Origin: Oleiharenicola sp.
Lineage (GTDB): Bacteria > Verrucomicrobiota > Verrucomicrobiia > Opitutales > Opitutaceae
NCBI GenBank assembly: GCA_025363455.1
Contig: JANYDW010000050.1
Span: 2,839 to 66,838, forward strand
DNA: 64,000 nucleotides
Direction of reading: 5' to 3'
A program made the translations under genes and the position numbers. Positions 8,272-63,017 of this stretch are shown one piece after another. The stretch's first letter is position 1. Each line of letters opens with the position of its first letter. A model generated the notes under the pieces. The model was not told the DNA's origin. It was given only the letters and a program-made list of their open reading frames with translations, and did no database searches.

Positions 8272-8372
8272 AATTTTTAACCACATACCAGCTTAGCAGA
8301 CGCCGCTCAACCCGGCCCTGACTAAAGTAGGTCTAAACAAACGGCGCTCACCCGCCACCTACCACTTAGCCC

Positions 8373-9014: not shown

Positions 9015-9033
9015 CCCCGGAGACTGACCAAAC

Positions 9034-9669: not shown

Positions 9670-9953
9670 TACAAGCCGACAAAATTCTCAAAACGATCCG
9701 CCTGACGGAGAAATCCAACAAGCTGTCGTCCAACTACGGTCAGTACACCTTCGAGGTGTACCCGGGCGCGACCAAGCACACCGTGCGCGCCGCCGTCGAG
9801 CAGACCTTCAAGGTCAGTGTCACGCGCGTGAACATCATGAACCGCAAGGGCAAGCCGAAGAAGTCCCGCCAGGGCCGCCCCATCACGATGTCCGACAGCA
9901 AGCGCGCCATCGTCACCCTCAAGCAGGGTGACAAGATCGAGCTCACCTCCTGA
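9666..9953 (+). CDS. rplW: 50S ribosomal protein L23
   Basis: 95 aa, 4-nt overlap with rplD, L23-like LTEKS.. N-terminus. Confidence 0.95.
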   Translation: MIQADKILKTIRLTEKSNKLSSNYGQYTFEVYPGATKHTVRAAVEQTFKVSVTRVNIMNRKGKPKKSRQGRPITMSDSKRAIVTLKQGDKIELTS

Positions 9954-9974
9954 GCGCACCGGAGATAACCCACC

Positions 9975-10841
9975 ATGGCCCTTAAATCCTTCCGTCCCCT
10001 CACCGCCTCACTCCGGTTCACCATCCTGAACCGCCCCGCCGGCGTGTCCAAGAAGCGCCCCGAGCGTTCGCTCGTCGAGTCGAAGAACAAGACCGGCGGC
10101 CGCAACACCTACGGCCGCATCACCTCCCGCCGTCGCGGCGGCGGGCACAAGAAGCTTTACCGCATCATCGACTTCAAGCGCAGCAAGCTCGATATGCCCG
10201 CCAAGGTGCAGTCGATCGAGTACGATCCCAACCGCAGCGCGCTTCTGGCGCTCCTCGCCTACGCCGACGGCACGAAGACCTACGTCCTCGCGCCCCAGGG
10301 CCTGCAGGCCGGTGATACGATCTACAACGCGATGAAGACCGACACGAACGACTACCGTCCGGGTAATTCCTTCCCGCTGGGCGTCATCCCGCCAGCCACC
10401 AAGATTCACGCCATCGAGATGCTCCCCGGCAAGGGTGCTCAGATCGCCCGTTCCGCCGGCACCTCGGCCGAGCTAGTGACCGTCGAGAACGGCTACGCGC
10501 AGATCCGCCTGGCTTCGGGCGAGACCCGCCTGGTCAACGCCCAGTGCCGCGCCACCATCGGCGAGGTTTCCAATCCCGACCACAACAAGCGCTCGCTCGG
10601 CAAGGCCGGCCGCAACCGCTGGCTCGGCAAGCGCCCCCGCGTCCGCGGCGTCGCCATGAACCCGGTCGACCACCCCAACGGTGGCGGTCAGGGCAAGTCC
10701 AAGGGCGGCGGTGGTCGCCAGCACCTCGTTTCGCCCTGGGGCCAGCTCGCCAAGGGCTTCCCGACGCGCAAACGCACCAAGCTCTCCAGCTCCTTCATCC
10801 TCGTTCGCGCCAACGGCCGTCCGCCGCGCGGCAAGAAGTAA
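9975..10841 (+). CDS. rplB: 50S ribosomal protein L2
   Basis: 288 aa, RGVAMNPVDHPNGGGQGKS motif. Confidence 0.97.
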   Translation: MALKSFRPLTASLRFTILNRPAGVSKKRPERSLVESKNKTGGRNTYGRITSRRRGGGHKKLYRIIDFKRSKLDMPAKVQSIEYDPNRSALLALLAYADGTKTYVLAPQGLQAGDTIYNAMKTDTNDYRPGNSFPLGVIPPATKIHAIEMLPGKGAQIARSAGTSAELVTVENGYAQIRLASGETRLVNAQCRATIGEVSNPDHNKRSLGKAGRNRWLGKRPRVRGVAMNPVDHPNGGGQGKSKGGGGRQHLVSPWGQLAKGFPTRKRTKLSSSFILVRANGRPPRGKK

Positions 10842-10859
10842 TCCCAACGCACCCGCACT

Positions 10860-12638: not shown

Positions 12639-12839
12639 ATGACTTCCAAAGAAATCCGCGACCTCGCCCCCGGCGAGATCACCACCAAGCTCCGCGAGAC
12701 CCGCGAGGCCCTCCTGCAGCTCCGCCTGCGCAAGAACGCCGGCCAGGTCGAGAAGCCGCACCTCCTGCGCGAATACCGCAAGGACATCGCCCGTCTCGAG
12801 ACCATCCTGAAGCAGAAGAAAACCGCCAAGGCCGCCTGA
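12639..12839 (+). CDS. rpmC: 50S ribosomal protein L29
   Basis: 66 aa, helical L29-like sequence, synteny. Confidence 0.93.
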
Positions 12840-12862
12840 GCCCGCGCCCACCGCCCCCTCCC

Positions 12863-13219
12863 ATGTCCACTCACGTCCGCAATAATCGCCGCAAGACGCT
12901 CATCGGCTTCGTCAGCTCCAAGATGGGTGACAAGTCCGTCAAGGTCACCGTCCCGTACAAGACGCCGCACCCGCTTTACCACAAGGTCATCAACCGCAAG
13001 ACCGTCCTCCACGTCCACGACGAGAAGAACGAGACCAAGGTCGGCGACAAGATCGAGGTCATGGAGACCCGCCCGATCAGCCGCCTCAAGCGCTGGCGCG
13101 TGATTCGCGTCGTCGAGGCCTCCATCGGGCTCGATATCGTCGCCGTGTCCGAGAAGGACGTTGCCGAGGCCGTGCCGACCAAGACCACCAAGAAGACGGC
13201 CCCGGCCGCCAAGGCCTAA
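12863..13219 (+). CDS. rpsQ: 30S ribosomal protein S17
   Basis: 118 aa, S17 OB-fold core plus K/A-rich C-terminal tail. Confidence 0.94.
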   Translation: MSTHVRNNRRKTLIGFVSSKMGDKSVKVTVPYKTPHPLYHKVINRKTVLHVHDEKNETKVGDKIEVMETRPISRLKRWRVIRVVEASIGLDIVAVSEKDVAEAVPTKTTKKTAPAAKA

Positions 13220-13240
13220 CCCTCCGCCGGAGACCCTACC

Positions 13241-13606
13241 ATGATCCAGATGCGTTCCATCCTCGATATTGCCGACAACACCGGCGCGCGCCGCGCGTCG
13301 ATGATCGGCAAGATCGGCCATCCCTCCCGCTACGCTCACGTCGGTGACATCATCACCGTCAACATCAAGGAGAGCAGCACCGACGCCACCGTGAAGAAGG
13401 GCGAGGTCGTCAAGGCCGTCATCGTCCGCACGAAGGCCGCGCTCCGCCGCCCCGACGGCAGCTATCTGCGCTTCGATTCCAACGCGATCGTCATCATTGG
13501 CGAGGACGGCAACCCGAAGGGCACCCGCATCTTTGGCCCGGTCGCCCGCGAGCTCCGCGCCAAGAACTACACGAAGATCATCTCGCTCGCCCCGGAGGTC
13601 CTCTAA
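13241..13606 (+). CDS. rplN: 50S ribosomal protein L14
   Basis: 121 aa, [18 protein letters not shown].. Confidence 0.97.
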
Positions 13607-13607
13607 C

Positions 13608-13892
13608 ATGGCCCAGAAATTCCATATCAAACGCAACGACCTCGTCGTCGTCATCGCCGGTGCCCACAAGGGCAAGGCGGGCAAGGTCCTCGAGGTCCGC
13701 GCCGCCAAGAACCGCGCGGTCGTTGAGGGCGTGGCCATGATCAAGCGCCACCTCAAGAAGTCCCAGGAAAACCCGCAGGGCAAGATCGCCGAGCGCGAGG
13801 GCACGATCCACGTGTCGAACCTCATGCTCCAGGCGCGCTATGACGCGTCGAAGCGTGCCAAGAAGCCGGCCGTCGCGGCCGCCAAGGCCTGA
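13608..13892 (+). CDS. rplX: 50S ribosomal protein L24
   Basis: MAQKFHIKRNDLVVVIAGAHKGKAGKV.. (KOW motif); the ATG is 1 nt after the rplN stop. Confidence 0.93.
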   Translation: MAQKFHIKRNDLVVVIAGAHKGKAGKVLEVRAAKNRAVVEGVAMIKRHLKKSQENPQGKIAEREGTIHVSNLMLQARYDASKRAKKPAVAAAKA

Positions 13893-13955
13893 GCGGGCAG
13901 GGGACACCACTTTAAATAACCATCCAGCATCCGGGTCGGAAATCCGGTTAGCACC

Positions 13956-14537
13956 ATGAGCAAACAACCCACACCTCTTCAGAAAATTTACGCCGAGACC
14001 GTCGCCCCGGCCTTGATGGCCTCCCGCGGCTACAAGAACAAGCATCAGGTCCCGAAGCTCGAGAAAATCGTCCTCAACACCGGCATCAGCTCCGAGGCCG
14101 ACAAGAACACCATCGCCGACACCGCGCGCGACATGGGCCTCATTGCCGGCCAGAAGCCCGTGTTGAACCGCTCGAAGAAGGCCATCGCCAATTTCAAGCT
14201 GAAGCCCAACCAGGTCACCGGCTGCCACGTCACCCTCCGCGGCGAGGCCATGTGGCACTTTCTCATGCGTCTGCTCGCCGTGGCGCTGCCCACCATCCGC
14301 GACTTCCGCGGCGTGCCCAACAAACTCGACGGCCAGGGCAACTACACCATCGGCATCACCGATTTCACCATCTTCCCCGAGATCGTCGTCGAGAACAACA
14401 AGCGCTCGATGGGCCTCGACATCACCCTCGTGACCTCCGCCGAGACGGACGACGAAGGCCGCGAGCTCCTCAAACTCCTCGGGATGCCCTTCCGCCGCAT
14501 CGAGCCCGCCGTGCCCGCCAAGACTTCCGCCGCCTAA
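13956..14537 (+). CDS. rplE: 50S ribosomal protein L5
   Basis: 193 aa, L5 family, synteny. Confidence 0.96.
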
Positions 14538-17338: not shown

Positions 17339-18838
17339 ATGTTTTCCGCCTTCACGAACTCCCTGAAGATCCCCGAGCTCCGCTCGCGGATCCTCTACAC
17401 CCTGGGTTTGCTCTTCGTGGCTCGCGTGGGAGCGCATATCCCGCTACCCGGCGTCGACCCGAAGCCGCTACAGCATTTCTTCGCCGACCAGACCGCCGGC
17501 GGCGGCGGCGCGCTCGTCGGGCTTTACAACATGTTCACGGGCGGCGCGCTCCTCAAGGGCGCCGTCTGCGCGCTGGGTATTATGCCCTACATCAGCGCGT
17601 CCATCATTTTCCAGCTAATGACCGCCATCGTGCCGGCGCTCAGCCGCCTCCAGCAGGAGGGCGACGTCGGTCGCCAGAAGCTCACGCAATACACCCGTTA
17701 CGCCACTGTCTTCATCTGCATTGTTCAGGCCGTCTTGCTCGTGCTCAACATGGAGAACCCAGGCAAGCTCTTCCAGGGCTATGATGTGAACACCTACGGC
17801 CAGATCGTGGTCGTCGGCAAGTGGCAGTTCCTCGCTTACTCCACCGTCTTCCTGACCGCCGGCACCATGCTGCTCATGTGGCTCGGCGAACAGATTACCC
17901 AGCGCGGCATCGGTAACGGCGTCTCCCTGCTCATCACCGTCGGCATTTTGTCCGACATCCCCGGTGCAGCCTACTCGACGTATCAACTCTTCTTTGCGCC
18001 CGTTGGTGTCGCCAAGCTCGGCCCCATCCAGGGCGTGATGATGGCGGCGCTTTTCATCGCCGTGACCATGGGCATCATTGCCGTTACCCAGGGCCAGCGC
18101 AAAATCCCCGTCCAGTACGCCAAACGCGTTGTCGGCCAGAAGGTCTATGGCGGCCAGAGCTCCTTCCTGCCCCTCAAGGTCAACTATTCCGGCGTCATGC
18201 CTGTCATCTTCGCCACGTCCATTCTGCTGTTTCCGCAGATGATCATGTCGCAGATCGGTGCATATTTTGACCTAAAATTCCTCAGCGAGTTTGCGACTAA
18301 CTTGCTGCGCGGCCATCCCGTGTATTACATCAGCATGACGGTGCTCATCATGTTTTTCAGTTATTTCTGGGTCTCCGTCATGTTCAAGCCGATCCAGATC
18401 GCCGATGACCTGAAGAAGTACGGCGGCTACATCCCGGGCGTGCGTCCCGGCGAGCCGACAGCCGGCTTCCTCGACTTCATCATGACGCGTCTGACCTTGG
18501 CCGGCGCGATTTTCCTGACAATCATCGCCATCATTCCCGACGTGCTCCTCTTCGAGTTGTCAGTCCCACCGCGTGTCGCCTATTTCTTCGGTGGTACCGG
18601 CATGTTGATCACGGTTGGTGTCATTTTGGACACCATGCGCCAGATCGAGACCTTCCTCCTCCAGCGCCATTACGACGGCTTCCTGAAGAAGGGTCGCATC
18701 CGGGGCCGCAGCACCTCCGCCAATGTTGCCTTAGGCGAGGCCGCCAGCGACAAATCGGTTATGCAACTCACTCTGGTCATGGTGGTTATCCTCTTGGTTG
18801 GCATTGCGGCCTGGGCCATCCGGACCTTCGCTCTTTAA
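17339..18838 (+). CDS. secY: preprotein translocase subunit SecY (with about 42-aa C-terminal extension)
   Basis: 499 aa polytopic protein, SecY family colinearity. The tail after ..FLKKGRIRGR holds an extra hydrophobic helix. Confidence 0.96.
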   Translation: MFSAFTNSLKIPELRSRILYTLGLLFVARVGAHIPLPGVDPKPLQHFFADQTAGGGGALVGLYNMFTGGALLKGAVCALGIMPYISASIIFQLMTAIVPALSRLQQEGDVGRQKLTQYTRYATVFICIVQAVLLVLNMENPGKLFQGYDVNTYGQIVVVGKWQFLAYSTVFLTAGTMLLMWLGEQITQRGIGNGVSLLITVGILSDIPGAAYSTYQLFFAPVGVAKLGPIQGVMMAALFIAVTMGIIAVTQGQRKIPVQYAKRVVGQKVYGGQSSFLPLKVNYSGVMPVIFATSILLFPQMIMSQIGAYFDLKFLSEFATNLLRGHPVYYISMTVLIMFFSYFWVSVMFKPIQIADDLKKYGGYIPGVRPGEPTAGFLDFIMTRLTLAGAIFLTIIAIIPDVLLFELSVPPRVAYFFGGTGMLITVGVILDTMRQIETFLLQRHYDGFLKKGRIRGRSTSANVALGEAASDKSVMQLTLVMVVILLVGIAAWAIRTFAL

Positions 18839-18850
18839 CACTTTACTTCG

Positions 18851-19324
18851 GTGAAGAGGGCTGAACACTCCAGCGCCTTTTCCGCTCTCGCCCTGGCGAA
18901 AGCGAAAATCATTCTCCTCGGTCCCTCCGGCCTGCATTTCGCGGGTTGGATTAACCGAGGCCGTTCTTTGAATCTTGAGCACGTCTCTCCTGCGTTACTT
19001 GTGCAACAGGAGATTTCGCGACGCACGCCGGTCGGCCAGCAGGCCGCCTCGGCGATCACGCGTTCTGCTGTCCAGCAGAATGCCGACCGTTACCACCTTG
19101 CGCTCTTGCGCAAATGGTTCTGGGCGCGCAAACCCGATGCGGGATTCCTTCTCGAAGGCTTCCCGGCTACGCTGCTCCAAGCGTTGGTGTTCGACGAATG
19201 GCTCGAAGCCCGTGGTGAAACCCTCACCGCCGCGCTCGCGCCTGATCCGCTTTACGCGGATCCCGTCAGCACCTACTACCGCACCCAGGGTCTCCTCCGC
19301 GGAGACCTGACCGCCGCCGCCTGA
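18851..19324 (+). CDS. adenylate-kinase-like protein lacking the P-loop Lys, catalytic Args and LID (probable pseudoenzyme)
   Basis: Occupies the secY-adk-map slot. KIILLGPSGLHFAG aligns to Adk RIILLGAPGAGKGT and GFLLEGFPAT to GFLLDGFPRT. Intact 157-aa ORF with GTG start; its stop overlaps the map ATG (TGATG). Confidence 0.7.
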   Translation: MKRAEHSSAFSALALAKAKIILLGPSGLHFAGWINRGRSLNLEHVSPALLVQQEISRRTPVGQQAASAITRSAVQQNADRYHLALLRKWFWARKPDAGFLLEGFPATLLQALVFDEWLEARGETLTAALAPDPLYADPVSTYYRTQGLLRGDLTAAA

Positions 19325-20094
19325 TGATCCCGATCAAAAACCCGGAAGCCATCAAGCGGATGCGCGAGTCCTGTGCCATCGCCGCCACCGTCCTGGCGCG
19401 GCTGAAGGAACAGGTTCGTCCCGGTATCACGACCTACGACTTGGATCAAATCGGCCGCGATCTCATCGCCTCGTTCGGCGCCCGCAGCGCCTGCCACGGC
19501 TACCAGTTGCATTCCCGTCGCTATCCCGCCTACACCTGCCTCTCGGTTAACGACGAGGTCGTCCACGGCATCGGCTCCCTCAAGCGCATCCTCCGCGACG
19601 GTGACATCATCTCGCTCGACGTGGTCGTTGAATACAACGGCTATATCGGCGACAATGCCATGACGGTCCCGGTGGGCGCCACCGCCCCCCGCACCACCGA
19701 GCTGCTGAAAGTCACCGAGGAGGCCCTTTACCTAGGCATCAAGCAGGCGGTCGTTGGGAACCGCATCGGCGACATCTCGCACACTGTGCAGACCTACGTT
19801 GAGGCCCGCGGCTTCGGCATCGTCCGCGAAATGGTCGGCCACGGGGTCGGGCGGGAGATGCACGAGGAACCGCAGATCCCGAACTTCGGCCGCCGCAACA
19901 CCGGCGAGAAGATCAAGCCCGGGATGACGCTCGCCATCGAGCCGATGGTCAACCTCGGTGGTTACCAGGTACGCACCCTCGCCGACGGCTGGACGGTCGT
20001 CACCACTGACGGTTCGCCCTCCGCCCACTTCGAACACACCGTACTCACCGCCGATTCCGGCCCCGAGATCCTCACGATCCCGCGCGCCTCCTGA
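19324..20094 (+). CDS. map: type I methionine aminopeptidase
   Basis: 256 aa, MetAP metal ligands in conserved context (DVVVEYNGYIGDNA, HGVG, IEP). Confidence 0.96.
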   Translation: MIPIKNPEAIKRMRESCAIAATVLARLKEQVRPGITTYDLDQIGRDLIASFGARSACHGYQLHSRRYPAYTCLSVNDEVVHGIGSLKRILRDGDIISLDVVVEYNGYIGDNAMTVPVGATAPRTTELLKVTEEALYLGIKQAVVGNRIGDISHTVQTYVEARGFGIVREMVGHGVGREMHEEPQIPNFGRRNTGEKIKPGMTLAIEPMVNLGGYQVRTLADGWTVVTTDGSPSAHFEHTVLTADSGPEILTIPRAS

Positions 20095-20186
20095 TTCACC
20101 CACTTTTTTAAACTACAACATCTCGCCTCGCCGTAACTCTCCAGAGTGAAGGCGAGTCAACCACTCAACTCTAAACCACATCACCC

Positions 20187-20579
20187 ATGCCTCGTCTCCT
20201 CGGCGTAGAACTTCCCGCCAAAAAGAAGATCGGATACTCCCTCCGGTACATCTACGGTATTGGCCCCACGCGGGCCGACCAGATCATCGCGGCCGCCGGC
20301 CTCGATGCCAACATGCGCGCCTCGGACCTCACCGAGGAGCAGCTCAACAAGATTCTCCACGTCATCACCGACAACAAGTGGGTGGTGGAGGGTGATCTCC
20401 GCCGCGATATCGCCGGCAACCTGAAGCGACTTCAGGCCATCAATTGCTATCGTGGCATCCGCCACCGCCGCAGTCTGCCCGTCCGCGGTCAGCGCACCAG
20501 CACCAACGCCCGCACCCGCAAGGGCCCGCGCAAGACCGTGGGTGTCACCAAAGCCGCCGCGCCTGCCAAATCAGCTTAA
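20187..20579 (+). CDS. rpsM: 30S ribosomal protein S13
   Basis: 130 aa, [10 protein letters not shown].. , S13 family. Confidence 0.96.
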
Positions 20580-34119: not shown

Positions 34120-35769
34120 ATGATATCAATTTCCTCGTATCCCATCCTGACGTGCGCAGAGGCGAAAGCCTGGGAGGCACGCTTGGTGCAAGACGAGGCG
34201 GCCGAGTGGACAGCCATGCAGCTGGCCGGGCAGGCAGTGGCGCAGGCCATCCTGGAGGATTTCAAGGAAGTGGGCGGGCTGCCAGTGAAGGCCCGGGTGC
34301 TCGTTCTCGCCGGGAAGGGTCACAATGGCGGCGATGCGTTGCTGGCAGCGAAAACCATCATGGAAAAATTCCCGCAAGCCAGGGCCGATGTAGTACTCTG
34401 CTTCGGTGACGCCACGCTGCGACCACTGGCCCGTCGAGCGCTCAATGAACTGAGGCATATCGTCGGCCAGCGGATTAACGTCGCTGAAACACACCCCGGC
34501 GCTTCGCGCCACCCCTCTCTAGAGGGGATTTTCGACAGACCATCTGCCAGGTCCCCTCTGGAGAGGGGTGCCCGACAGGGCGGGGTGTGTTGGGATCTTT
34601 GTCTGGACGGAATCTTCGGTTTCCAATTTCGGGCGCCGATGGACGCGGACATCGCTGCCTTGATCGACACAGTCAATGCCCATGCCGGCATCAAGTTTCG
34701 CGCCGCAATCGATCTGCCCAGTGGGCTGGGGGAAACGAACGCGTCGACGATCTTCCGGGCGGATTTCACCTATGCGACGGGCATCGTTAAAAAGCCGGTG
34801 CTGTCTCACGGGGCGGCGAACTCGGTCGGTCGCCTGCGCTACCTGGATCTTGGATTTTTCGGGTCTGCTTGTAGGAGCCTGCTTGCAGGCGATGCCACGG
34901 GAGAATCGCCTGCAAGCAGGCTCCTACAACTTCAGAACGACAGTGCGGAGATGATTCTGCTCCCGTCACTCCTGGCTCCGCTGGCTGAGCTGCGCGCCTC
35001 ACAGACGGACAAGCGTACCTTCGGTCATCTATTCGTCGTCGGAGGTTCCCGCAGTTATCCGGGTGCGGTGGTACTGGCGGTGCGCGCGGCGCTCCGCAGT
35101 GGAGCGGGCTTGGTTACGGCCTTCGTGCCGGAGCGGCTGGCTCCGGAGTACGCCGCGCGCCACCCCGAGGGCATGTGGGTGGGTTGCCCGGAATCGGCCG
35201 GTGGCGGACTGAGCTCCGGGACCGTGGATTTGGTTCGGGAGCGAGTGAGCCGGGCCACCGCCATGTTGATCGGGCCGGGAATGGGGGCGGAAAACGAGAC
35301 CCTCGCAATGATGCAAGGGATTGTTCGTGAGACGAACATTCCGCTTGTGCTGGATGCCGATGCCTTGCGGCCGGAATTAATGGCGCGAGTCAAAGGCAGG
35401 CCCTTCATCGGCACGCCGCACGCTGGCGAATTGCAGCGCATCGCCCCGGAGCTTTATACCGCCGATCAGTTCACCGCTCAGCTGGGTGTACTGGTGCTGA
35501 AGGGGCCCATGACGCGGGTAACAGATGGGAAAACAACTTATTACAGCCCGTTTGGCGGGCCCGTGTTGGCGCGAGGCGGGAGCGGCGATATCCTGGCGGG
35601 GTTGATCGGTGGCCTGCTGGCGCAGAAGCCGGACGACTTGGTGCTGGCCGCGTGCCGGGGCGTGGTGTGGCATGGGCGAGCGGCTGATTTACTGGCTCGC
35701 GCTCGAGGTCAGGTTGCCATAGAGATTTCTGAAATCCTCGAGCAGCTTGGGCCGGCGCTCACTCCCTGA
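34120..35769 (+). CDS. nnr: bifunctional NAD(P)H-hydrate epimerase / ADP-dependent dehydratase
   Basis: YjeF_N (AGKGHNGGDAL, DGIFGFQFRAP) and carbohydrate-kinase-like C-domain (VVGGSRSYPGA, GSGDILAGLIGG). 549 aa, including two palindrome-derived in-frame inserts. Confidence 0.9.
   Translation: MISISSYPILTCAEAKAWEARLVQDEAAEWTAMQLAGQAVAQAILEDFKEVGGLPVKARVLVLAGKGHNGGDALLAAKTIMEKFPQARADVVLCFGDATLRPLARRALNELRHIVGQRINVAETHPGASRHPSLEGIFDRPSARSPLERGARQGGVCWDLCLDGIFGFQFRAPMDADIAALIDTVNAHAGIKFRAAIDLPSGLGETNASTIFRADFTYATGIVKKPVLSHGAANSVGRLRYLDLGFFGSACRSLLAGDATGESPASRLLQLQNDSAEMILLPSLLAPLAELRASQTDKRTFGHLFVVGGSRSYPGAVVLAVRAALRSGAGLVTAFVPERLAPEYAARHPEGMWVGCPESAGGGLSSGTVDLVRERVSRATAMLIGPGMGAENETLAMMQGIVRETNIPLVLDADALRPELMARVKGRPFIGTPHAGELQRIAPELYTADQFTAQLGVLVLKGPMTRVTDGKTTYYSPFGGPVLARGGSGDILAGLIGGLLAQKPDDLVLAACRGVVWHGRAADLLARARGQVAIEISEILEQLGPALTP
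34512..34590. repeat. pair of CCCCTCT..AGAGGGG hairpins plus G-rich tail, embedded in nnr
   Basis: CCCCTCTCTAGAGGGG (34512-34527) and CCCCTCTGGAGAGGGG (34553-34568), then TGCCCGACAGGGCGGGGTGTGT. Translated in frame as HPSLEGIF..SPLERGARQGGVC. Confidence 0.8.
34871..34927. repeat. REP doublet (REPIN), family A, inside the nnr coding sequence
   Basis: Perfect 23-bp inverted repeat GTAGGAGCCTGCTTGCAGGCGAT / ATCGCCTGCAAGCAGGCTCCTAC with an 11-nt spacer; same family as the REPs flanking the RAYT. Confidence 0.92.
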
Positions 35770-53251: not shown

Positions 53252-53278
53252 CGCGAGCTTGTGGTCTTCCTGCCTTAT

Positions 53279-53331
53279 GTAGGAGCTTGCTTGCAAGCGA
53301 TTGCCTTGGTCGCCTGTAAACAGGCTCCTAC
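53279..53331. repeat. REP doublet (REPIN), family A
   Basis: GTAGGAGCTTGCTTGCAAGCGAT-N8-TCGCCTGTAAACAGGCTCCTAC; nearly identical to 54647-54698. Confidence 0.92.
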
Positions 53332-54036: not shown

Positions 54037-54046
54037 GTCAGTCCCT

Positions 54047-54133
54047 GTAGGAGCCTGTTTACAGGCGATTTTTCGGCCTGCGACTACGATTGCGCCTTGG
54101 CAGTCTCCAGATCGCCTGCGAGCAGGCTCCTAC
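54047..54133. repeat. REP doublet, family A (wide spacer)
   Basis: GTAGGAGCCTGTTTACAGGCGAT ...41 nt... ATCGCCTGCGAGCAGGCTCCTAC; ends 1 nt before the RAYT ATG. Confidence 0.9.
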
Positions 54134-54134
54134 A

Positions 54135-54650
54135 ATGGCAATCAATCCAGCGAAGGGCCACGCAGCGTTGCGTCGTGGGTGTTTTTCCCAACCGTCGACG
54201 GAGTATTTCCTGACGATTTGTACCGAGGCCAAGCAGGCGGGCCTCACCACCAAGCACATCGCCGATGCGATATTAAATGAGATGAAAGCAATGTCAGGTG
54301 ACGGCACTTGGTCATTGCTCTGTGCGATAGTGATGCCGGACCACGTGCATTTTCTTGCGGTGCTTGGAGAGCGGCTATCGCTGGGCAAGACCGTGCAAAG
54401 ATTGAAAGCCAAAACCTCTGCGGTGCTTGGTGCGGGCGGCATCGCTTGGGAGAGAGGCTTCTTTGATCGGCAATTGCGACCCAAGGATGATCGGCTGGCC
54501 GTTTTTCAGTATATCTATCTGAATCCGTATCGAGCCGGGTTGGTGGAGGTATCGGATCTTTGGCCGCACTACTACTGTGAGACGGAAGAGTGGAAGTGGT
54601 TTGGCGAGTTGTTAGAGCTTGGTCGGCCGTCTCCGGAGTGGCTGTTGTAG
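54135..54650 (+). CDS. REP-associated tyrosine transposase (IS200/IS605 TnpA-like, Y1 HUH)
   Basis: 171 aa with HUH motif MPDHVHFL and catalytic-Tyr motif YIYLNPYRAGLV. Single-copy gene flanked by REPs rather than IS ends. Confidence 0.88.
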   Translation: MAINPAKGHAALRRGCFSQPSTEYFLTICTEAKQAGLTTKHIADAILNEMKAMSGDGTWSLLCAIVMPDHVHFLAVLGERLSLGKTVQRLKAKTSAVLGAGGIAWERGFFDRQLRPKDDRLAVFQYIYLNPYRAGLVEVSDLWPHYYCETEEWKWFGELLELGRPSPEWLL

Positions 54651-54698
54651 GAGCTTGCTTGCAAGCGATTGTCTGGTCGCCTGTAAACAGGCTCCTAC
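54647..54698. repeat. REP doublet (REPIN), family A
   Basis: GTAGGAGCTTGCTTGCAAGCGAT-N7-TCGCCTGTAAACAGGCTCCTAC. The left GTAG supplies the RAYT stop codon; ends 4 nt before the lnt ATG. Confidence 0.92.
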
Positions 54699-56364: not shown

Positions 56365-56376
56365 ATCGGCATTCTT

Positions 56377-56453
56377 GTAGGAGCCTGTTTACAGGCGATT
56401 CTGGATTCTCGCTGACGGACCGGAGCCAGCCTCGTTTGTAAACAAGCTCCTCC
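56377..56453. repeat. REP doublet, family A, one arm degenerate
   Basis: GTAGGAGCCTGTTTACAGGCGAT plus a decayed inverted partner TCGTTTGTAAACAAGCTCCTCC (head GTAG changed to GGAG). Confidence 0.8.
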
Positions 56454-56470: not shown

Positions 56471-57325
56471 TCACTTCCCGTCGGGCAGGGGGCGGTTGAA
56501 GAAGAGCGCGGGAGGATGTTGGGTGCGCTGGGCCACACGCCACTGCTTGATGAGTTCCTTGCGGTCGGCCTGGGGGGCGTCGCCAGCCAGCAATTTGCCA
56601 TTCTTCGCTTGCTCGAACCGGTCGTCGATCCCGTTGGCATTGGCGTCTTCGTAGAGTGGATTTTCGTCGGCCTGCACGAGGCCGTTGAGCATGGCGCCGG
56701 CTGCCCCTGAGTGAACGATGAACTGCGCATGCTTGACCGCGGGATCGAGCGGAAGGTCTTCGGCAAGGAGTCGGGCGCCATCATAAAGGTCCCACACGCC
56801 CTTGGTCGGATCGAGCCGGACGATGAGCACGATGAACGGGGCCAGGAGCTGACCCTCGTGCTTTTCGAGGGGAACGTGCAATGCGAGCAGCCGCCACTTG
56901 GGTTTGGCGCCGGAGGAAGCTTCGTCCACGGCCAGTTGGGCGTAGTGGTCGATTTCGCTTTCCACCACGCCGAGGCGGGCGCCGGCGATTTCAACTATCG
57001 TGCCGGTGGAGGCATAGACGGAGAAGGACACAAACAGGAGGCCAGTCCCGCGCAAGGGCTGGGACCAGTTTTTGCCTGCATCGAGCGCGAGGAAGGCAGC
57101 CCCGCCTTTCTCGCCGAGGCGGGCGCCGGCGACACCTTGGGTCGCAAGGGTGTCATTGGAGAACTTGGTAGGGTCGAGCGGTGACGCTTCATCGGTTTGG
57201 ACCTGCGCTTTGAGCCGGGGCAGTCCGAGCGGGGCTGGAGCGGGAGTCTGCGCCGCGCACATTCCAACCAGCAGAAGCGACGACGCAACGGTGATCAGGT
57301 AATTAGTAATGGATAATATTTTCAT
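56471..57325 (-). CDS. secreted hypothetical protein (last gene of the accessory operon)
   Basis: Start at MKILSITNYLITVASSLLLVGMCAA (signal peptide); acidic DANANGIDD loop near the C-terminus; no family recognised. Confidence 0.7.
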   Translation of the reverse strand: MKILSITNYLITVASSLLLVGMCAAQTPAPAPLGLPRLKAQVQTDEASPLDPTKFSNDTLATQGVAGARLGEKGGAAFLALDAGKNWSQPLRGTGLLFVSFSVYASTGTIVEIAGARLGVVESEIDHYAQLAVDEASSGAKPKWRLLALHVPLEKHEGQLLAPFIVLIVRLDPTKGVWDLYDGARLLAEDLPLDPAVKHAQFIVHSGAAGAMLNGLVQADENPLYEDANANGIDDRFEQAKNGKLLAGDAPQADRKELIKQWRVAQRTQHPPALFFNRPLPDGK

Positions 57326-57365
57326 GGTGCAGTTGCCCGCCATAAGGGCGCGCCTGTTATTGGAG

Positions 57366-58661
57366 CTATGGCTTTTTCGCCGATAGCGGAGGGACGACGG
57401 AGACGGGAACGTGGATCAAATTCGCACCCCATTTTTCCGGCGGGCGCCCCTCCACGCGATTGAGAGAATATTCGTAGGACAGGGCCATGGGGCCGAACAC
57501 CATGGCTACTGAATCGATTTCTGGCGTGCGCCTTGATGCGGCGATGTCCATCAATAAATCGCCATCGACGCCAGGTCCGCGATATTGCTTTCGCAGATAC
57601 TCCAACGCCCGCTGGTTTACGAAGGCATCATCTTTATGGATGTAAAATAATGCGCCAAAAGCCCGACGAAAATCGACACTGTTCCCATTCGGGGATTGTG
57701 CTATGAAGTCGACTATTTCCTCCAGCGCCTTGGTCACTCGCGGTTCTACTGTGATAGCGAGGAAATCAAAGGCCAGCGGACGCGTTCCGCCCGAATAATT
57801 GTTCTTTTCCTCCCGTGGTTCCATGCCCGCGAACTGGCGCGCCGTGGAGATGACATAGTCCAAATCGGCCGGTTGCCGGAGTGCTTGATATAGCGCCCAA
57901 TGCCCAAGCAGTTGCGCTTCGGGGTAGGCATTCAGCAGATTTTTGTATTGTTCGACGGACTCAGCATCCTTCATCCCGAGATAAGCTGCGATCCACTCCG
58001 TATCATAGCCTAGTTCCCGGTTCGCCCGTTTCCGCCGCACCAGATCATACATCTCCGGCACCTGTTGCATCGTCGCAACCGTCAGCAGGTCGGAGGTCTG
58101 GAAGCGCTGATAAGCCTGAAAAAGGTCGTGGGGATCAATGATCTGGCGAAAACGATGCAGCGTTTCGGCCGCTTGCTCGGCAAAATCCACCGGCAGCTCA
58201 CCAGCAGAGGCGGCGTGCAACGCCGCCTGCAGCACCGGTACACCGGCGTAGGAGCCCAGTTCAAGCAAAAGCCATGAGGCGGTCACCCGCACGTCCCAAT
58301 CGGGATTTTCCAAGAGCCGGGCGAAGATAGCAATAGCCTCTTCGCGCTTGTAGTGCTGATTGAGCAATTCCCCGAGTGACGGTTTCCATTTCAGGGGATC
58401 GCCCGTGGCGATCAATTCATCGAGGCGCTTGTGGTTCCATTCCTTCAACGACCAGGTCGAAAGATTCCCCAGTGGAGACCCGGAGGCAGGAATAGTTGCG
58501 GGAACCGTCGGAACGACAGGACCCACATGCCCTCCTGGCTTCTGTATCGATGCGCCTGCCAATCCCGGTTGGGATGGAGCGCGGCCGAACTTGAGCCAGA
58601 CCCACGCCCCGAGGATCACTACCAGGACCATAACCAGCAGAATGCGTCTTTTTATGATCAT
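57366..58661 (-). CDS. membrane-anchored HEAT-like repeat protein
   Basis: N-terminal TM helix RILLVMVLVVILGAWVWL; ENPDWDVRVTASWLLLELGSYAGVPVL resembles a HEAT/PBS-lyase repeat. The start overlaps the upstream stop (ATGA). Confidence 0.75.
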   Translation of the reverse strand: MIIKRRILLVMVLVVILGAWVWLKFGRAPSQPGLAGASIQKPGGHVGPVVPTVPATIPASGSPLGNLSTWSLKEWNHKRLDELIATGDPLKWKPSLGELLNQHYKREEAIAIFARLLENPDWDVRVTASWLLLELGSYAGVPVLQAALHAASAGELPVDFAEQAAETLHRFRQIIDPHDLFQAYQRFQTSDLLTVATMQQVPEMYDLVRRKRANRELGYDTEWIAAYLGMKDAESVEQYKNLLNAYPEAQLLGHWALYQALRQPADLDYVISTARQFAGMEPREEKNNYSGGTRPLAFDFLAITVEPRVTKALEEIVDFIAQSPNGNSVDFRRAFGALFYIHKDDAFVNQRALEYLRKQYRGPGVDGDLLMDIAASRRTPEIDSVAMVFGPMALSYEYSLNRVEGRPPEKWGANLIHVPVSVVPPLSAKKP

Positions 58662-61600
58662 TGGGTGTCCTGCACGGTCGGCGCAGGCTCACTGGTAGGG
58701 AATTGTCCCAGAGGCGTATGATATATGAATGGACGGAGCATGCCAGCTTGCTGGTTTAGGCTATACTTTTTGAGTAAATCATAGGCGCCTGAACCATTAC
58801 GCCTGCTGTAGATCCTTATCTCGTTGAAATAGATCAAGCCGCTTTCTGTTCCAGCGGCATTCCATGTTTTATTGATGCTCAACTGAACCTGGTTTTGATT
58901 GTCGCGCCCGGACGCATCGAGGCCAAAAATAATTTCATTGAAGATGTACGGGACATCGCGTTCGAACAGGGCATAGTTACCCCGGGAGGCCTCCCACCCG
59001 ATCCGGCCCGACGTGTAGAGGGAAACCCGGCCACCGGTGATATCTTTGCGCTGCTGGCCATTGCGGGTGTTCTCCAAGGACGGAATGAGCAGATTATTGG
59101 CCGTATCGGTGGCGCCGCTGAGCCCGATCAGCGGCAGGACCCACAGCGTCCCAGCATTGGCAAACACGCTGATAAAACCCGTAATCTGCATTTTCGTTGG
59201 TCCCATCAGACTCGAAGGGGATCCCACCGACACGAGGCTGTCGTCCTGGATTTTCCCGTCTTCCCGCAACAAATATTTGATCTCATACTCCCCGAGCATC
59301 CGGTAGGACTGAAGCTGAAAAAGGTTGAGAAGGGTCTGCACTGGTAACGGGTCTAGATCAGCAAGATCAACGGTATCCGGGCTCCCGTTTAACAGCTCTT
59401 GCGCCAGCCAGAATTTTTCGTCTTCGCCCACGTGCGGAAGCGACGCCACGCTCTTGGGCGGCGACGCTCTCAGCCCAAGCCACATTTTACCGACCTCCTC
59501 AACCGGGGTAGAGGGTAAACTTACATATGTCATAATGGCAGTCGCTGCGGTAGACGATATGGGATTGACCAACCAAAGCACGCGTGTCCCAAGGTCTGCT
59601 ATAATGTCAGCTTTGAGTGCATCTTTTTGAGTCTGGCTTATGACAAAATCCGCAATGGGCCGCACTTGCCCGACGACAAGGTAGCGCGCCGTCCGCCAGC
59701 CGATTCGCTGTTCATATTGAACATCGAAGCTGTTCCCCCAAGACGGGGTCACGTGACACTTGATTTGGTACCTGCCGGGCCTCCAATCGATCCAGTCATG
59801 GGTGGAATCGTCATCTCCTCGGACGATTTTCCATTCACTGACATTGTTGCCGGATGGACCTTGGATGGTCTGTGGCAACGAAACTTGGTCGTCGAAATAG
59901 GGTCCCGTAGCGGTCCAAGTATACGTCCCGGGCAACAGGTCATCGAGCGACCAACTCACCATGTCGCCGTTTTTGGTGCCGGCATACAGAGGTTGAGCCA
60001 GCCCTTGTTCAACTGCACTGCTCCAAGCAATTGTCGCTATATCGCCATTTGCTACCTTTTTGATTATTCTATGCTGCGCCGACTCCACATTGACCGGGAT
60101 CCAAACTGTTTGGCCATCGCTTTGCCCGCCTTGCTTGACACCGATCTGCCACTGGCCGCTCAGGTCGATGCCGACGTTTAGGATGTCCAGCAGGCCGTTC
60201 TTTGGCACGGAGATCACCTGGCCAAGGGTATTCTTCACCGAAAACACCACCTTGTTGTTTGCGACATTGAGCAATGTGCCGGCGGTATCCGCCGCCTGCG
60301 CCAGAATTGACGGAGTGCCGGATGGCAAGGTAAGGCCGAGCGTTCCGGTGCTGCTCACAGTCACGGCGGTGCCGTTGGAGAAAGTGATGGTCGCGTTGCC
60401 GCTGCCATCCACTTGGACCACGATCCCGCCGGAGAGCGTAAGGCTGTTGCCCGGACTTACCGTGCCGCTGCCACTGACGGTCACACTGCCACCACTCGCG
60501 GTGATGGTCGTGCCTCCCGACAGGGTGATGCCCCCGAAACTGCCGTTGGTGGCCACTTTCAAGGTCGCATTGCCTGGCAAGCCGAGCTGCACGCTTCCGA
60601 CCGGCCGGCCGGTCTGGACGGCGTAATACCTTGTGCGGTCCATTTCGCCAGGATCATTGATGGAAAGATGCGCGTTCTGGTGGGTATTGATAGAGAAGCT
60701 TGGTACAGTCAGCACATACTCCCAGTTGCCGGGATTGACCACGTCAGGATTCGCCAAGGCCGTGCGGTCGCGCCAGATCTGCGTCTGGCGGTCGGCGTCG
60801 GTCGCGACATCGAAGATGACGTCAAAATAAGTAGTGGAGGTGGTCCAGAAAGCCCACACTGGAATCCACACCCAGGAAAAGTCCGGCTGGCCGAGATCCC
60901 CGTAGAGGCTGCCCCACGATTCGAACCAACCGTTTATGTTGTAGGTAGCGTAAGAGGTGTTGGTCGTGGTCCAACTGTTGACCCAGAAATGGAAGGCGTC
61001 GGTATTGCTCCCGCTGACCCGATCGAGGATGCCGTCGTTATTTGTATCCAACCAGAACGCTTTGGCAAAATCGGAAACAGGTTTGTTGGCGGTCGTGCCG
61101 TTGACCCCACTGCTCCAGCCCGACCAGTTGCCGGCGGCGTCCCGGGCCCGGACGCTGAAGCTGTAGCTTGTACTGGGAGTAAGGCCAGCGACGGTAAGGG
61201 TGGTATAAGGCGTGGTGGCATAGGGACTGCCCCCGACGGAAACCTCATAACCAGTTACTCCGACATTGTCGGACGCTGCGCTCCAAGCGAGCGTGAGGTA
61301 GGTGGGATTCGGGGCACTAGTGGTCACACTGCCCGGCACGGAGGGAGCCTGCGTGTCGGCGCCGCCGGTGGTCGTGCCGTTGACCCCTGTGCTCCAGCCC
61401 GACCAGTTGCCGGCGGCATCGCGGGCGCGTACATTGAAACTGTACGTGGAACCGGGTGTAAGGCCGGTGACCAATATCGATGTGCCAGTGACGGTGCCAT
61501 AAAAGACGCCTCCTACGGAAACTTGATAGCTGGTGACGCCCACGTTGTCGGATGCGGCGCTCCAACTGAAGGTGAGGGAGGTGGGACCGGCCGCACTGGT

Positions 61601-61888
61601 GGCAGGGCTGCCGGGCACGGAGGGTGCCTGGGTATCGGTTCCGATAAGGGCGGAAAAAGAGCCGCCGGAACTGGCGGTGAAATCCGGCCCGAGGCTGATG
61701 CTGTCGGTGGCCAGATAGGTGACATCGGCAGTGCTGGCGACGGTGACGGTGGCGCCGCTGGCGATCTCAATGGTGTCGGGACCGGCCACGGTGGTCGTGC
61801 CCGTGTAAGTGGTCGTCGGCACCACTGTCCCGGCCCAGGCGGCGGGGGCGTAGAGGAGCCCGAGGAGAAGCAGCCGGAGCAGGGTCAT
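58658..61888 (-). CDS. 1076-aa secreted giant protein: 2 x FN3, G/S/T-rich beta-helix-like stretch, large unassigned C-terminal region
   Basis: Signal peptide MTLLRLLLLGLLYAPAAWA; tandem DTQAPSVPGS..WSAASDNVGVT.Y.VSVGG..RARDAAGNWSGWS repeats; no stop over 3.2 kb. Confidence 0.85.
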   Translation of the reverse strand: MTLLRLLLLGLLYAPAAWAGTVVPTTTYTGTTTVAGPDTIEIASGATVTVASTADVTYLATDSISLGPDFTASSGGSFSALIGTDTQAPSVPGSPATSAAGPTSLTFSWSAASDNVGVTSYQVSVGGVFYGTVTGTSILVTGLTPGSTYSFNVRARDAAGNWSGWSTGVNGTTTGGADTQAPSVPGSVTTSAPNPTYLTLAWSAASDNVGVTGYEVSVGGSPYATTPYTTLTVAGLTPSTSYSFSVRARDAAGNWSGWSSGVNGTTANKPVSDFAKAFWLDTNNDGILDRVSGSNTDAFHFWVNSWTTTNTSYATYNINGWFESWGSLYGDLGQPDFSWVWIPVWAFWTTSTTYFDVIFDVATDADRQTQIWRDRTALANPDVVNPGNWEYVLTVPSFSINTHQNAHLSINDPGEMDRTRYYAVQTGRPVGSVQLGLPGNATLKVATNGSFGGITLSGGTTITASGGSVTVSGSGTVSPGNSLTLSGGIVVQVDGSGNATITFSNGTAVTVSSTGTLGLTLPSGTPSILAQAADTAGTLLNVANNKVVFSVKNTLGQVISVPKNGLLDILNVGIDLSGQWQIGVKQGGQSDGQTVWIPVNVESAQHRIIKKVANGDIATIAWSSAVEQGLAQPLYAGTKNGDMVSWSLDDLLPGTYTWTATGPYFDDQVSLPQTIQGPSGNNVSEWKIVRGDDDSTHDWIDWRPGRYQIKCHVTPSWGNSFDVQYEQRIGWRTARYLVVGQVRPIADFVISQTQKDALKADIIADLGTRVLWLVNPISSTAATAIMTYVSLPSTPVEEVGKMWLGLRASPPKSVASLPHVGEDEKFWLAQELLNGSPDTVDLADLDPLPVQTLLNLFQLQSYRMLGEYEIKYLLREDGKIQDDSLVSVGSPSSLMGPTKMQITGFISVFANAGTLWVLPLIGLSGATDTANNLLIPSLENTRNGQQRKDITGGRVSLYTSGRIGWEASRGNYALFERDVPYIFNEIIFGLDASGRDNQNQVQLSINKTWNAAGTESGLIYFNEIRIYSRRNGSGAYDLLKKYSLNQQAGMLRPFIYHTPLGQFPTSEPAPTVQDTQ
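61088..61636 (-). repeat. tandem duplication (period about 279 bp) encoding two FN3 domains
   Basis: aa 85-177 and aa 178-267 of the giant protein are colinear. DNA blocks such as CCAGCCCGACCAGTTGCCGGCGGC recur at 61116 and 61395. Confidence 0.85.
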
Positions 61889-61902
61889 GGCTTTCGTTGC
61901 GA

Positions 61903-61925
61903 ATCGCCTGCAAGCAGGCTCCTAC
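61903..61925 (-). repeat. single REP, family A, in the 5' leader of the giant gene
   Basis: ATCGCCTGCAAGCAGGCTCCTAC on the + strand, which is GTAGGAGCCTGCTTGCAGGCGAT on the coding strand; 15-37 nt upstream of the ATG at 61888. Confidence 0.9.
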
Positions 61926-61994
61926 AAATGGTGATGCGGTTGGTGCCCATGGTGTTTTTTTCAAATACCCGGAGCTTACTCCGGGACCGTTACG

Positions 61995-63017
61995 TTAACG
62001 GCCCTTTTTGAGCAGCTCGACTTCATGTCGCAGTGCGACGTTCTCTTTGTCCAATCGAATCAGGTGTAGCGTTAGTTCCTCCACCTTGGCGAGGAGCCGG
62101 GCCTGCATGTCCCCCAGGTTGACGCCGTCTTGGGCGATCTCGGCGGCGGAAGGGATGCCGGGGAGATGTTTCTTTTCCTTGATGAACTGCGCTACATCGC
62201 TGAGCGCTGACAGCTGATAGCATTCTTCAAACACATAGTCCGACCAGCCTGTCTGGTTTACCACCACGCCTCTGGCATGGATGTTGCCATTGACGCCCAG
62301 CTTGTAACTGCCGGGGTCTGTCGTGCCGATGCCGACGTTGCCGGAGGGGAAAACAACATTTTTCACTGAGTAGCTCCCGGTGTTACGAGTCACGAGCAGC
62401 CAATTGTCAGCCGCAGTGTAGGCGCTGTTCACAAATCGGCCGGTGAGCTGTCCGTTCCATTGAATCAACTCGGAAATCCTTTGATCGATGGTATCTCCGT
62501 CGTTGATGAGTTGGACTTGGATCTGTCCCGATCCGCGGCCAACGAGGGTTAGCGCCTGCAGAGATCCCCCCACCTCGACATTGCCGCTTTGTCTTATCCT
62601 CATTCGCTCGGTCAAGGTCGTGTCGCTCGCGGCATTCCGGGTATAGAAGGCCAGATCGCCCGTTGTGTTAGTGCTGCCATTGTTGATCAGGCCCTTGATG
62701 CCGGCCCAGTACCCTTGGAACGCGCCAAAGAGCAGCGAACCACCGTTGTTCACCGCTCCGCCGCTGTCCTGGAGGTACAATGCACCCGCGCCCACGGCCG
62801 GAGCGGACGCTCCCGCCGCCCCAAAGAGGTGGAGTTGGCTCGACGGACCCGGCGTGCCGATGCCGACATTGGTGTTGGAAGAAGAGCCGATGCCGCTAGT
62901 GCCGCTTGGCACGTAGAGGGTGGTCTGGGCAGAGGCGAGGCGGGCAGACGACAGATATCCGAGAACAGATAGCAGCAGAAGGAATCGGTGGAGAAAAACG
63001 GTGGATGGGTATTTCAT
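61995..63017 (-). CDS. secreted tail-fibre-like protein
   Basis: Start at MKYPSTVFLHRFLLLLSVLGYLSSARLASA. NVGIGT motifs near both ends. C-terminal GWSDYVFEE..KHLPGIPSA..LGDMQARLLAKVEELTL module. Confidence 0.8.
   Translation of the reverse strand: MKYPSTVFLHRFLLLLSVLGYLSSARLASAQTTLYVPSGTSGIGSSSNTNVGIGTPGPSSQLHLFGAAGASAPAVGAGALYLQDSGGAVNNGGSLLFGAFQGYWAGIKGLINNGSTNTTGDLAFYTRNAASDTTLTERMRIRQSGNVEVGGSLQALTLVGRGSGQIQVQLINDGDTIDQRISELIQWNGQLTGRFVNSAYTAADNWLLVTRNTGSYSVKNVVFPSGNVGIGTTDPGSYKLGVNGNIHARGVVVNQTGWSDYVFEECYQLSALSDVAQFIKEKKHLPGIPSAAEIAQDGVNLGDMQARLLAKVEELTLHLIRLDKENVALRHEVELLKKGR

Follow-up and report, generated by a model that had tools for sequence, protein, structure and literature searches.

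Among described systems, those closest to the locus treated here are the polymorphic toxin-immunity systems, for which Zhang et al. (2012; PMC3482391) recognize Imm-HEAT and Tox-ABhydrolase classes as well as a trafficking class that carries a leader only, named after the type II secretion system (T2SS). For effectors that act in the periplasm, the PGAP1-like protein TplE/Tle4 of Pseudomonas aeruginosa and its partner Tli4 form an established effector-immunity pair (PMC6099711). For the family Opitutaceae, searches of the full-text literature found no description of an effector-immunity system. The locus in question lies in a 64,000-nucleotide stretch of Oleiharenicola sp. DNA (contig JANYDW010000050.1, positions 2,839 to 66,838 of the forward strand, assembly GCA_025363455.1), referred to below as the window and numbered from its first letter. 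Three of its genes, g2, g3, and g4, probably constitute a single instance of a polymorphic effector-immunity module with a lectin-like accessory subunit, a module met repeatedly in Opitutaceae/Opitutales (Verrucomicrobiota). The unit is these three genes and not four; g1, which precedes them, is a neighbor outside the conserved module.

An earlier note, made from the sequence alone, had presented g1 to g4 as a single surface operon. Its outline of the locus is accurate: four co-directional minus-strand open reading frames (ORFs) are present, namely g1 (61995-63017; 340 residues, with a longer ORF of 366 residues starting at 63095), g2 (58658-61888; 1,076 residues), g3 (57366-58661; 431 residues), and g4 (56471-57343; 290 residues from the first ATG). 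The spacer between g1 and g2 is 106 nucleotides, and the start codon of g3 overlaps the stop codon of g2 by 4 nucleotides as ATGA. The noted gap of 40 nucleotides between g3 and g4 applies if g4 starts at Met7 (57325), the family-conserved position at which the family alignment places the true start (56471-57325; about 284 residues); counted from the first ATG it is 22 nucleotides. All four products carry a hydrophobic leader or anchor at the N terminus, in keeping with the noted signal peptides and anchors, and are envelope or secreted proteins.

What kind of protein does g2 encode? It is a Sec-exported, multidomain protein with the signal peptide MTLLRLLLLGLLYAPAAWA. The N-terminal part consists of adhesion-type modules (61103-61753, minus strand), a GCX_COOH-like stack at residues 46 to 83 followed by two FN3 domains at residues ~88 to 262. 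The two FN3 domains that had been noted are matched by Pfam fn3 (two copies; E = 1.4e-18), and the stretch SISLGPDFTASSGGSF falls within a match to the GCX_COOH “3-coathanger stack” family NF045639 (residues 46 to 83; 33.7 bits versus a cut-off of 26). The mid-scaffold follows (60083-61081, minus strand; residues 270 to 602); it is conserved with the large proteins L004/P0003 and L005/P0004 of related loci (loci are numbered with an L throughout) and contains the calcium-loop-like motif WLDTNNDGILD and then a G/S/T-rich segment. It closes with a junction (“pre-toxin”) domain, at residues ~530 to 602, whose last residues are WIPVNVE. The C-terminal cassette, g2_C (58661-60082, minus strand; residues 603 to 1076), comprises an Ig-like subdomain and a conserved core (residues ~741 to 1076) and is a putative effector domain. 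The large unassignable remainder reported earlier is real, in that ~470 to 800 residues of g2 match no family in Pfam or NCBIfam.

The feature that organizes the locus, and that the earlier note missed, is a breakpoint at the end of the junction domain. Homologues of the g2 scaffold are found in L004, L005, and L007. Identity is 48% between residues 190 to 602 and L004/P0003 and 56% between residues 497 to 603 and L005/P0004, and in both cases the similarity ends sharply at residues 602 to 603, right after WIPVNVE. Past the junction, the L004 protein continues as a DUF676/PGAP1 esterase. Conversely, L013, L014, and L017 have g2_C at 36 to 60% identity, carried by scaffolds like those that bear other cassette types; further homologues are in L030 and L034. 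In the Sec class of polymorphic toxin-immunity systems, too, a large secreted protein keeps its N-terminal part while its C-terminal domains recombine.

The same architecture recurs well beyond the window. A scan with the g4 alignment, taking one genome per species, yielded 21 loci, almost all from metagenome-assembled genomes (MAGs) of Opitutaceae/Opitutales, plus one Horticoccus isolate. These loci, three further contigs (L035 to L037), and the contigs of the g2 relatives were compared by means of ORF maps and phmmer. The recurring order is a gene for a large secreted protein of 650 to 2,500 residues, a gene for a protein of 290 to 430 residues that is usually coupled to it by a 4-nucleotide overlap, and a g4 homologue. 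This order is present in 14 of the 21 scan loci (L007 to L019 and L021) and also in L005 and L035 to L037, with different flanking genes. In the g4-anchored loci that have enough upstream sequence, g4 sits downstream of the coupled gene. Two of the g4-family loci come from MAGs labeled outside the Verrucomicrobiota, L010 (Pirellulales) and L026 (Chloroflexota; a 2.5-kb contig), for which misbinning or lateral transfer is possible.

Does the coupled gene follow the cassette? The coupled proteins fall into the same clusters as the last 450 residues of their large proteins. Over 22 loci, both the C terminus and the partner are shared in 23 pairs of loci, the C terminus only in 5, neither in 203, and the coupled protein only in none. 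All five C-terminus-only pairs include L034, the most remote locus, and even there the partner is HEAT-like. A directly downstream cognate gene that co-varies with the C-terminal domain is again a property of polymorphic toxin-immunity systems. In the present loci the coupled proteins also diverge faster than the C termini that they accompany (e.g., 52% identity for C termini versus 35% for partners).

What might the C-terminal domain of g2 do? The slot that it occupies holds, in sister loci, a DUF676/PGAP1 esterase (L004 and L007; 28.7 bits versus a gathering threshold of 20.3), a DUF900 alpha/beta-hydrolase (28.3 versus 20.5 bits), a third, GxSxG-like domain, and, in two clusters, domains with an HExxH motif. 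The statement that no enzymatic domain is visible thus holds for this copy and fails for the same slot elsewhere. For g2_C itself there is no sequence match in Pfam, NCBIfam, or the PDB, and a Pfam scan of all of its homologues at E values up to 5 brought out no consistent weak family. Arg, Asp, Lys, Thr, and Asn make up its conserved polar residues, among them R732, D838, R863, K899, R962, and D978; there is no invariant His, Cys, or Ser and no serine hydrolase or lipase motif. An AlphaFold2 model of residues 600 to 1076, built on a 7-sequence alignment, has a mean pLDDT (predicted local distance difference test score) of 63 and is poor beyond the Ig-like subdomain and a helical block. Foldseek returned nothing at or below an E value of 1e-3, and only the Ig-like subdomain was matched (PmoD, CopC, PKD-like). 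One candidate role, that of an autotransporter-like C-terminal translocator, was rejected: in sister loci the slot is filled by soluble hydrolases, a terminal aromatic residue is missing from g2, and the model contains a helical block. The domain is presumably toxic, and its target is presumably in the envelope, because g3 is membrane anchored and faces the periplasm.

The cassette is also mobile and more widespread than it first appears. A word-indexed protein search with the g2 C terminus found only four to five relatives, versus 154 representative clusters at 50% identity in an exhaustive HMMER profile search, so nothing can be argued from rarity. In all near-full-length matches g2_C is at the extreme C terminus, in proteins of up to 2,945 residues whose N termini vary (TSP3_bac, Beta_helix, Pectinesterase-like, Laminin_G_3, and fn3).

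The product of g3 combines an N-terminal membrane anchor with HEAT repeats and is the putative cognate immunity protein. Its description as HEAT-like has been upheld by profile comparison. As a single sequence it scores 23.2 bits against HEAT_2, under the Pfam threshold of 27.7, and the g3 family profile, A6, matches the HEAT-type alphaRep in the PDB at 2e-13 over profile positions 81 to 148; only about two repeats are detected, and the remainder of g3 has no assignment. Homologues of g3 are found only downstream of g2_C-type C termini, in L013, L014, L017, L030, and, weakly, L034. The L030 partner matches g3 at 2e-52, and both the L030 and L034 partners are flagged HEAT_2. Across loci, in turn, the coupled partners come from unrelated folds and are not mutually homologous: 6 of 18 belong to HEAT_2, 4 of 18 to CarboxypepD_reg, and one is an 83-residue Zn-ribbon-like protein. 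An N-terminal leader or anchor is present in 17 of the 18, the 83-residue protein being the exception. HEAT-repeat partners and alpha/beta-hydrolase payloads are both familiar from polymorphic toxin-immunity systems, although the immunity candidates here are unlike theirs in being large (290 to 430 residues) and membrane anchored. The co-variation suggests that g3 neutralizes g2_C.

The exceptional partner deserves a remark of its own. At L016:9534-9785, the coupled gene encodes the 83-residue protein, which is leaderless and has a CxxC...CxxC pattern. The unassigned C-terminal domain of the corresponding 1,466-residue L016 protein would therefore act in the cytoplasm, unlike the other cassettes.

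Base composition sets the cassette and its partner apart from their surroundings. From 57366 to 60082 the GC content is 54.9%, compared with 62% for the window; this is the lowest 2.7-kb stretch, the next lowest elsewhere being 59.7%. At third codon positions (GC3), the value is 0.61 to 0.62 in the C-terminal cassette of g2 versus 0.73 to 0.77 in the rest of the gene. The lower-GC region that had been attributed to the four-gene set is therefore real but smaller in contrast and in extent, being confined to g3 and the C-terminal part of g2. Its reported span of 57.4 to 60.1 kb is accounted for by the GC3 dip, which runs from g2 residue ~603 through g3. The same dip, at the C terminus of the large protein and in the coupled gene, was found in 15 of 15 loci measured.

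How could new cassettes enter such a locus? L005 is orthologous to L007 (94% nucleotide identity downstream) and has one extra unit, made up of a g4 copy, a large gene that is truncated at its 5' end, leaderless, and different in its C terminus, a HEAT gene of its own, and a second g4. The orphan unit retains the junction at 88% nucleotide identity and g4 at 91%. The orphan in L013 is laid out in like manner, and L019 carries tandem modules, with a second large gene past g4. Three MAGs have from 2 to at least 4 copies of g4, and five contigs break inside g4. The orphans, the tandem modules, and the multiple g4 copies all argue for an exchange of cassettes by recombination that involves the junction sequence on one side and g4 on the other. 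Polymorphic toxin-immunity systems in general likewise have orphan cassettes, more than one module per genome, and cassettes of atypical composition. The 5'-truncated pairs of C-terminal domain and immunity gene, which lie downstream and keep a junction that permits recombination (L005 and L013), are reminiscent of CdiA/CdiI and Rhs orphan arrays. Unlike either, the present loci have a copy of a lectin-like gene between cassettes; such a gene lies 3' of each cassette and is apparently a second recombination arm, for which polymorphic toxin-immunity systems offer no counterpart.

That lectin-like gene is g4. Its family comprises at least 179 homologue clusters at 90% identity, all of ~290 residues; the few clusters that carry a source name are labeled Opitutaceae. 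It has no sequence-profile match in Pfam, NCBIfam, or the PDB. The members have their own leader, a conserved LGLPRLK motif near the N terminus, and two C-terminal helices, and the acidic DANANGIDD motif that had been likened to a calcium loop proves to be part of an almost invariant block, DENPLYEDANANGIDDxFE, near the C terminus, which resembles a thrombospondin type 3 (TSP3) loop. The AlphaFold2 model (pLDDT, 83.8; predicted template modeling score, 0.78) has a beta-sandwich at residues 60 to 225 followed by the two helices. Its best Foldseek matches, BoNT Hcn/NTNH, galectins, pentraxin, and the COMP signature domain, have E values of ~1e-4 and TM (template modeling) scores of 0.3 to 0.5. 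These scores, which reflect fold-level similarity only, support a predicted jelly roll of the concanavalin A (ConA) or laminin G (LamG) type. A predicted jelly roll followed by a DxNxNGxDD loop is the combination known from ConA-like/LamG lectins with TSP3 calcium loops (COMP/TSP, and the Laminin_G_3 and TSP3_bac modules of verrucomicrobial and planctomycete giant proteins). Unlike those proteins, g4 is free-standing at ~290 residues, with its own leader, the LGLPRLK motif, and the two C-terminal helices, and it stays below Pfam thresholds.

Two observations bear on how g4 may work. (i) Its identity is independent of the cassette: the window copy is 60% identical to that of L007, with a different cassette, and ~45% identical to that of L013, with the same one. 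It is therefore best regarded as a general component and not a cassette-specific one. (ii) In two remote loci, L030 (38 bits; residues 792 to 877) and L034 (32 bits), the g4 profile finds a match within the large protein. The matched unit, again jelly roll plus DxNxNGxDD loop, corresponds to the last sandwich strands and an NPLxxDxNxDGIDDAxE loop, and the L030 protein additionally has a Laminin_G_3 match. Since the large protein of these loci incorporates a g4-like segment, g4 probably acts together with the scaffold. On the strength of its predicted fold, it is a candidate lectin-like binding subunit.

Taken together, the observations can be arranged into a model. The g2 protein would be exported by Sec, with its N-terminal two-thirds serving as a conserved scaffold for presentation or adhesion and its last ~470 residues as an exchangeable effector domain. 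The g3 protein, translated from the overlapping ATGA, would sit in the inner membrane by its anchor and expose its HEAT repeats to the periplasm; as cognate immunity protein, it would shield the producer during passage of the effector through the envelope or on its re-entry. The g4 protein, of ConA/LamG fold and equipped with a TSP3-type calcium loop, would be secreted as a cassette-independent accessory; most likely it would bind carbohydrates or surfaces and cooperate in trans with the scaffold. New effector/immunity pairs would enter by homologous recombination, with the junction domain as the arm on one side and g4 as the arm on the other, and the orphan cassettes behind a g4 copy would be the donors.

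The route across the outer membrane is possibly type II secretion. A cluster of T2SS pseudopilin genes (T2SSG, GspH, four N_methyl, and T2SSK) is located at L036:798-4006, upstream of the module at 5767-10855 and separated from it by two unannotated genes. In L037, a gene for the T2SS E ATPase (12681-14396) is a few kilobases from the module, and in L009 ORFs at 17625-20360 look GspE/F-like by eye. Such proximity may hint at the export route or may be due to chance.

A bolder version of the effector-immunity model is possible but on balance doubtful, namely, that the loci encode an undescribed, Sec-dependent, lectin-assisted toxin delivery system of Verrucomicrobia, antibacterial or directed against eukaryotes. 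In that case g4 would dock through its calcium loops on the surface scaffold and recognize the target, making a two-component, A-B-like toxin; g4 would also be the arm on the 3' side when cassettes recombine; and g2_C would be a new envelope-targeting toxin fold neutralized by a membrane-anchored HEAT protein.

How far do the parallels with established delivery systems extend? As in the Tle/Tli pairs of T6SS (type VI secretion systems), a DUF676/PGAP1-type esterase in L004 and L007 is followed by a specific partner located in the envelope, as expected for an effector acting in the periplasm. Unlike in those pairs, the effector forms one protein with an adhesion scaffold that is exported by Sec, the window copy is without a lipase motif, and neither the Pfam-annotated gene tables of the related loci nor the ten window neighbors that were scanned showed VgrG, Hcp, or PAAR. 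Neither g2 nor its relatives nor the annotated neighbors have the two-partner secretion (TPS) domain, filamentous hemagglutinin repeats, CdiB, or YD/RHS repeats that would be expected for CdiA/CdiI or Rhs proteins. With respect to polymorphic toxin-immunity systems at large, the differences are that only a Sec leader and adhesion-type modules were seen, with no trafficking module of the RHS, TPS, T6SS, or type VII secretion system kind, and that the scaffold, the junction domain, g2_C, and g4 match no Pfam or NCBIfam family.

Several points weigh against an effector-immunity role. No toxic activity can be assigned to g2_C in this copy, which has no relative in Pfam or the PDB and a poor AlphaFold2 model. 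Elsewhere, g2_C is carried by proteins with Beta_helix and Pectinesterase-like N termini, which are typical of secreted polysaccharide-degrading enzymes. Components of type V secretion or TPS systems, the T6SS proteins VgrG, PAAR, and Hcp, RHS, and LXG are all missing from the Pfam-annotated gene tables of those loci that have such tables. The window holds a single copy of the module; a search of it for a second copy or an orphan cassette found none. Finally, the pair counts behind the co-variation are not phylogenetically independent, and the copy numbers per genome are approximate, as most related loci come from MAGs.

In the main rival explanation, which we consider unlikely, the large proteins would be secreted or surface hydrolases for nutrition or matrix remodeling, each with its own membrane-anchored steric chaperone or zymogen inhibitor. 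Here g3 would fold or hold the C-terminal enzyme of g2 during export, and g4 would be a carbohydrate-binding tether to the substrate. Precedents exist in the lipase-Lif foldase pairs and in the AprA-AprI protease-inhibitor pairs, and in both, as in the loci at hand, an alpha-helical specific partner, membrane anchored or periplasmic, is encoded directly after a secreted hydrolase. The esterase and peptidase-like domains in the C-terminal slots would be the enzymes, the partners are membrane anchored and face the periplasm, g4 has a predicted lectin-like fold, the g2_C proteins elsewhere bear Beta_helix, Pectinesterase, and Laminin_G_3 modules, and a dedicated antibacterial delivery apparatus is not encoded nearby. 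What, then, speaks for effectors and immunity? A search for a Lipase_chap match among the 18 coupled proteins found none, and unlike the Lif and AprA-AprI operons, the loci employ several unrelated partner folds, swap domains by recombination, and include orphan cassettes. One partner is the 83-residue leaderless protein of cytoplasmic type, and evolution is faster in the partners than in the enzymes. Metabolic enzymes are not marked by 5'-truncated orphans, tandem arrays, breakpoints at a single junction, and low-GC cassettes, all of which are hallmarks of conflict systems.

The reading closest to that of the earlier note, in which all four genes build a surface fibre, an adhesin, or a phage-receptor-like structure from a g1 fibre, the FN3 giant g2, g3, and g4, is quite improbable. 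The genes are indeed co-directional and closely spaced, all of the products are exported, and g2 has adhesion-type modules. The tail-fibre similarity reported for g1 is weak. To characterize this protein further, it is secreted, with a weakly tail-fibre-like center and a coiled coil at its C terminus; it matches PHROG 9942 (1.4e-10 over residues 113 to 248, a weak match), the tail fibre of Burkholderia phage ST79 by tblastn (30% identity, E = 6e-4, 45% coverage), and two viral contigs (33%), and it has no match in Pfam, NCBIfam, or the PDB. The co-occurrence check that had been proposed came out strongly positive for g2-g3-g4 and without a homologue of g1 in L004 to L027 or L030 to L034. Moreover, a hairpin and then TATTTG directly follow the g1 stop codon, a repetitive extragenic palindromic (REP) element lies between g1 and g2, and g1 is outside the REP pair around g2 to g4. 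It is for these reasons, and because its only similarity is to tail fibres and is weak, that g1 is treated as a neighbor and the four-gene operon is abandoned. A structural fibre, furthermore, would not exchange its C terminus for esterases or peptidase-like domains along with the next gene. Of the functions that had been suggested, a contact-dependent delivery device came closest; because the C-terminal cassette and its cognate partner recombine, the locus is best placed among polymorphic effector-immunity systems and not among fibres or adhesins. An arrangement reminiscent of g1 followed by g2, which could be cited in favor of a fibre, is found in L031 (GCA_014201715.1): a gene for 410 residues with a weak YadA_head match (4529-5761) lies directly upstream of one for a 2,945-residue protein that ends in g2_C. 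By phmmer, it has no homology to g1. That g2, g3, and g4 are merely adjacent by coincidence, as hypothetical genes without a functional link that share a patch somewhat richer in AT, as the scarcity of curated family matches might suggest, can scarcely be true, as it is refuted by synteny, with order, 4-nucleotide overlap, and one-to-one co-variation kept in >20 loci with different flanks.

Other loci have additional upstream genes. One type of large-protein scaffold starts with many Trp-rich repeats (WVEGYWDxxWVDG...; L016:5137-9537, L018:5604-8816, L019:5286-8216, and L021:4450-8751), and in these four loci a distinct g4 paralogue is upstream of the large gene. Loci without that paralogue have a second accessory family of ~340 to 385 residues with a leader, encoded upstream of the large gene and often overlapping its start (L007:4442-5593, L009:2683-3807, L011:2816-3973, L012:2813-3961, L036:5767-6834, and L037:2423-3445); there is no Pfam match where these genes are annotated. 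The upstream genes for ~380 residues were tested as possible relatives of g1 or g4 and are unrelated to both.

Within the window, a 26-nucleotide REP family, TGTAGGAGCCTGCTTGCAGGCGATTC, has 8 copies versus 0 expected. The two REPs that had been noted at 56377 and 61903 are real: one (56376-56401, plus strand; 2 mismatches to the query copy) is just past the g4 stop codon, and the other (61901-61926, minus strand; 0 mismatches) is in the g1-g2 spacer, 13 nucleotides upstream of the g2 start, so that g2 to g4 are bracketed by two copies in opposite orientation. REP sequence also occurs at 34870-34928, 53278-53303, 54046-54134, and 54646-54671. Three of the copies lie beside or across the ends of a Y1_Tnp ORF (54090-54650) that is IS200-like, of the REP-associated tyrosine transposase (RAYT) type. 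Apart from this RAYT-like Y1 transposase, the neighbors of the locus include SecA, Lnt, a HAD hydrolase, and a response-regulator receiver domain. Neither Rfam nor a tRNA scan gave a hit in the window, and promoter and terminator scan counts were not above those of shuffled controls. PHROG matches of g2 are driven by FN3 only, g1 having the one weak tail-fibre match described above. PADLOC matched none of the four proteins. The expectation that curated families would not cover this system is borne out, with g4 and the g2 C terminus unmatched by Pfam, NCBIfam, and PADLOC and g3 reaching only a subthreshold HEAT_2 score.

What does the module mean for the bacteria that carry it? It constitutes a defined, testable system in a phylum that is common in soil, freshwater, and gut, and it brings into view three families without a Pfam or NCBIfam match: the lectin-like g4, the junction/scaffold region, and g2_C. 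Each locus provides a matched effector/partner pair for tests of toxicity and rescue. Should the large proteins turn out to be nutritional or matrix-remodeling hydrolases after all, the loci would nonetheless yield a set of periplasmic chaperones or inhibitors, each specific to an enzyme. Cassettes flanked by a conserved accessory gene represent an unusual layout for exchange, one that may show how an effector repertoire can diversify without RHS, CDI, or T6SS machinery.

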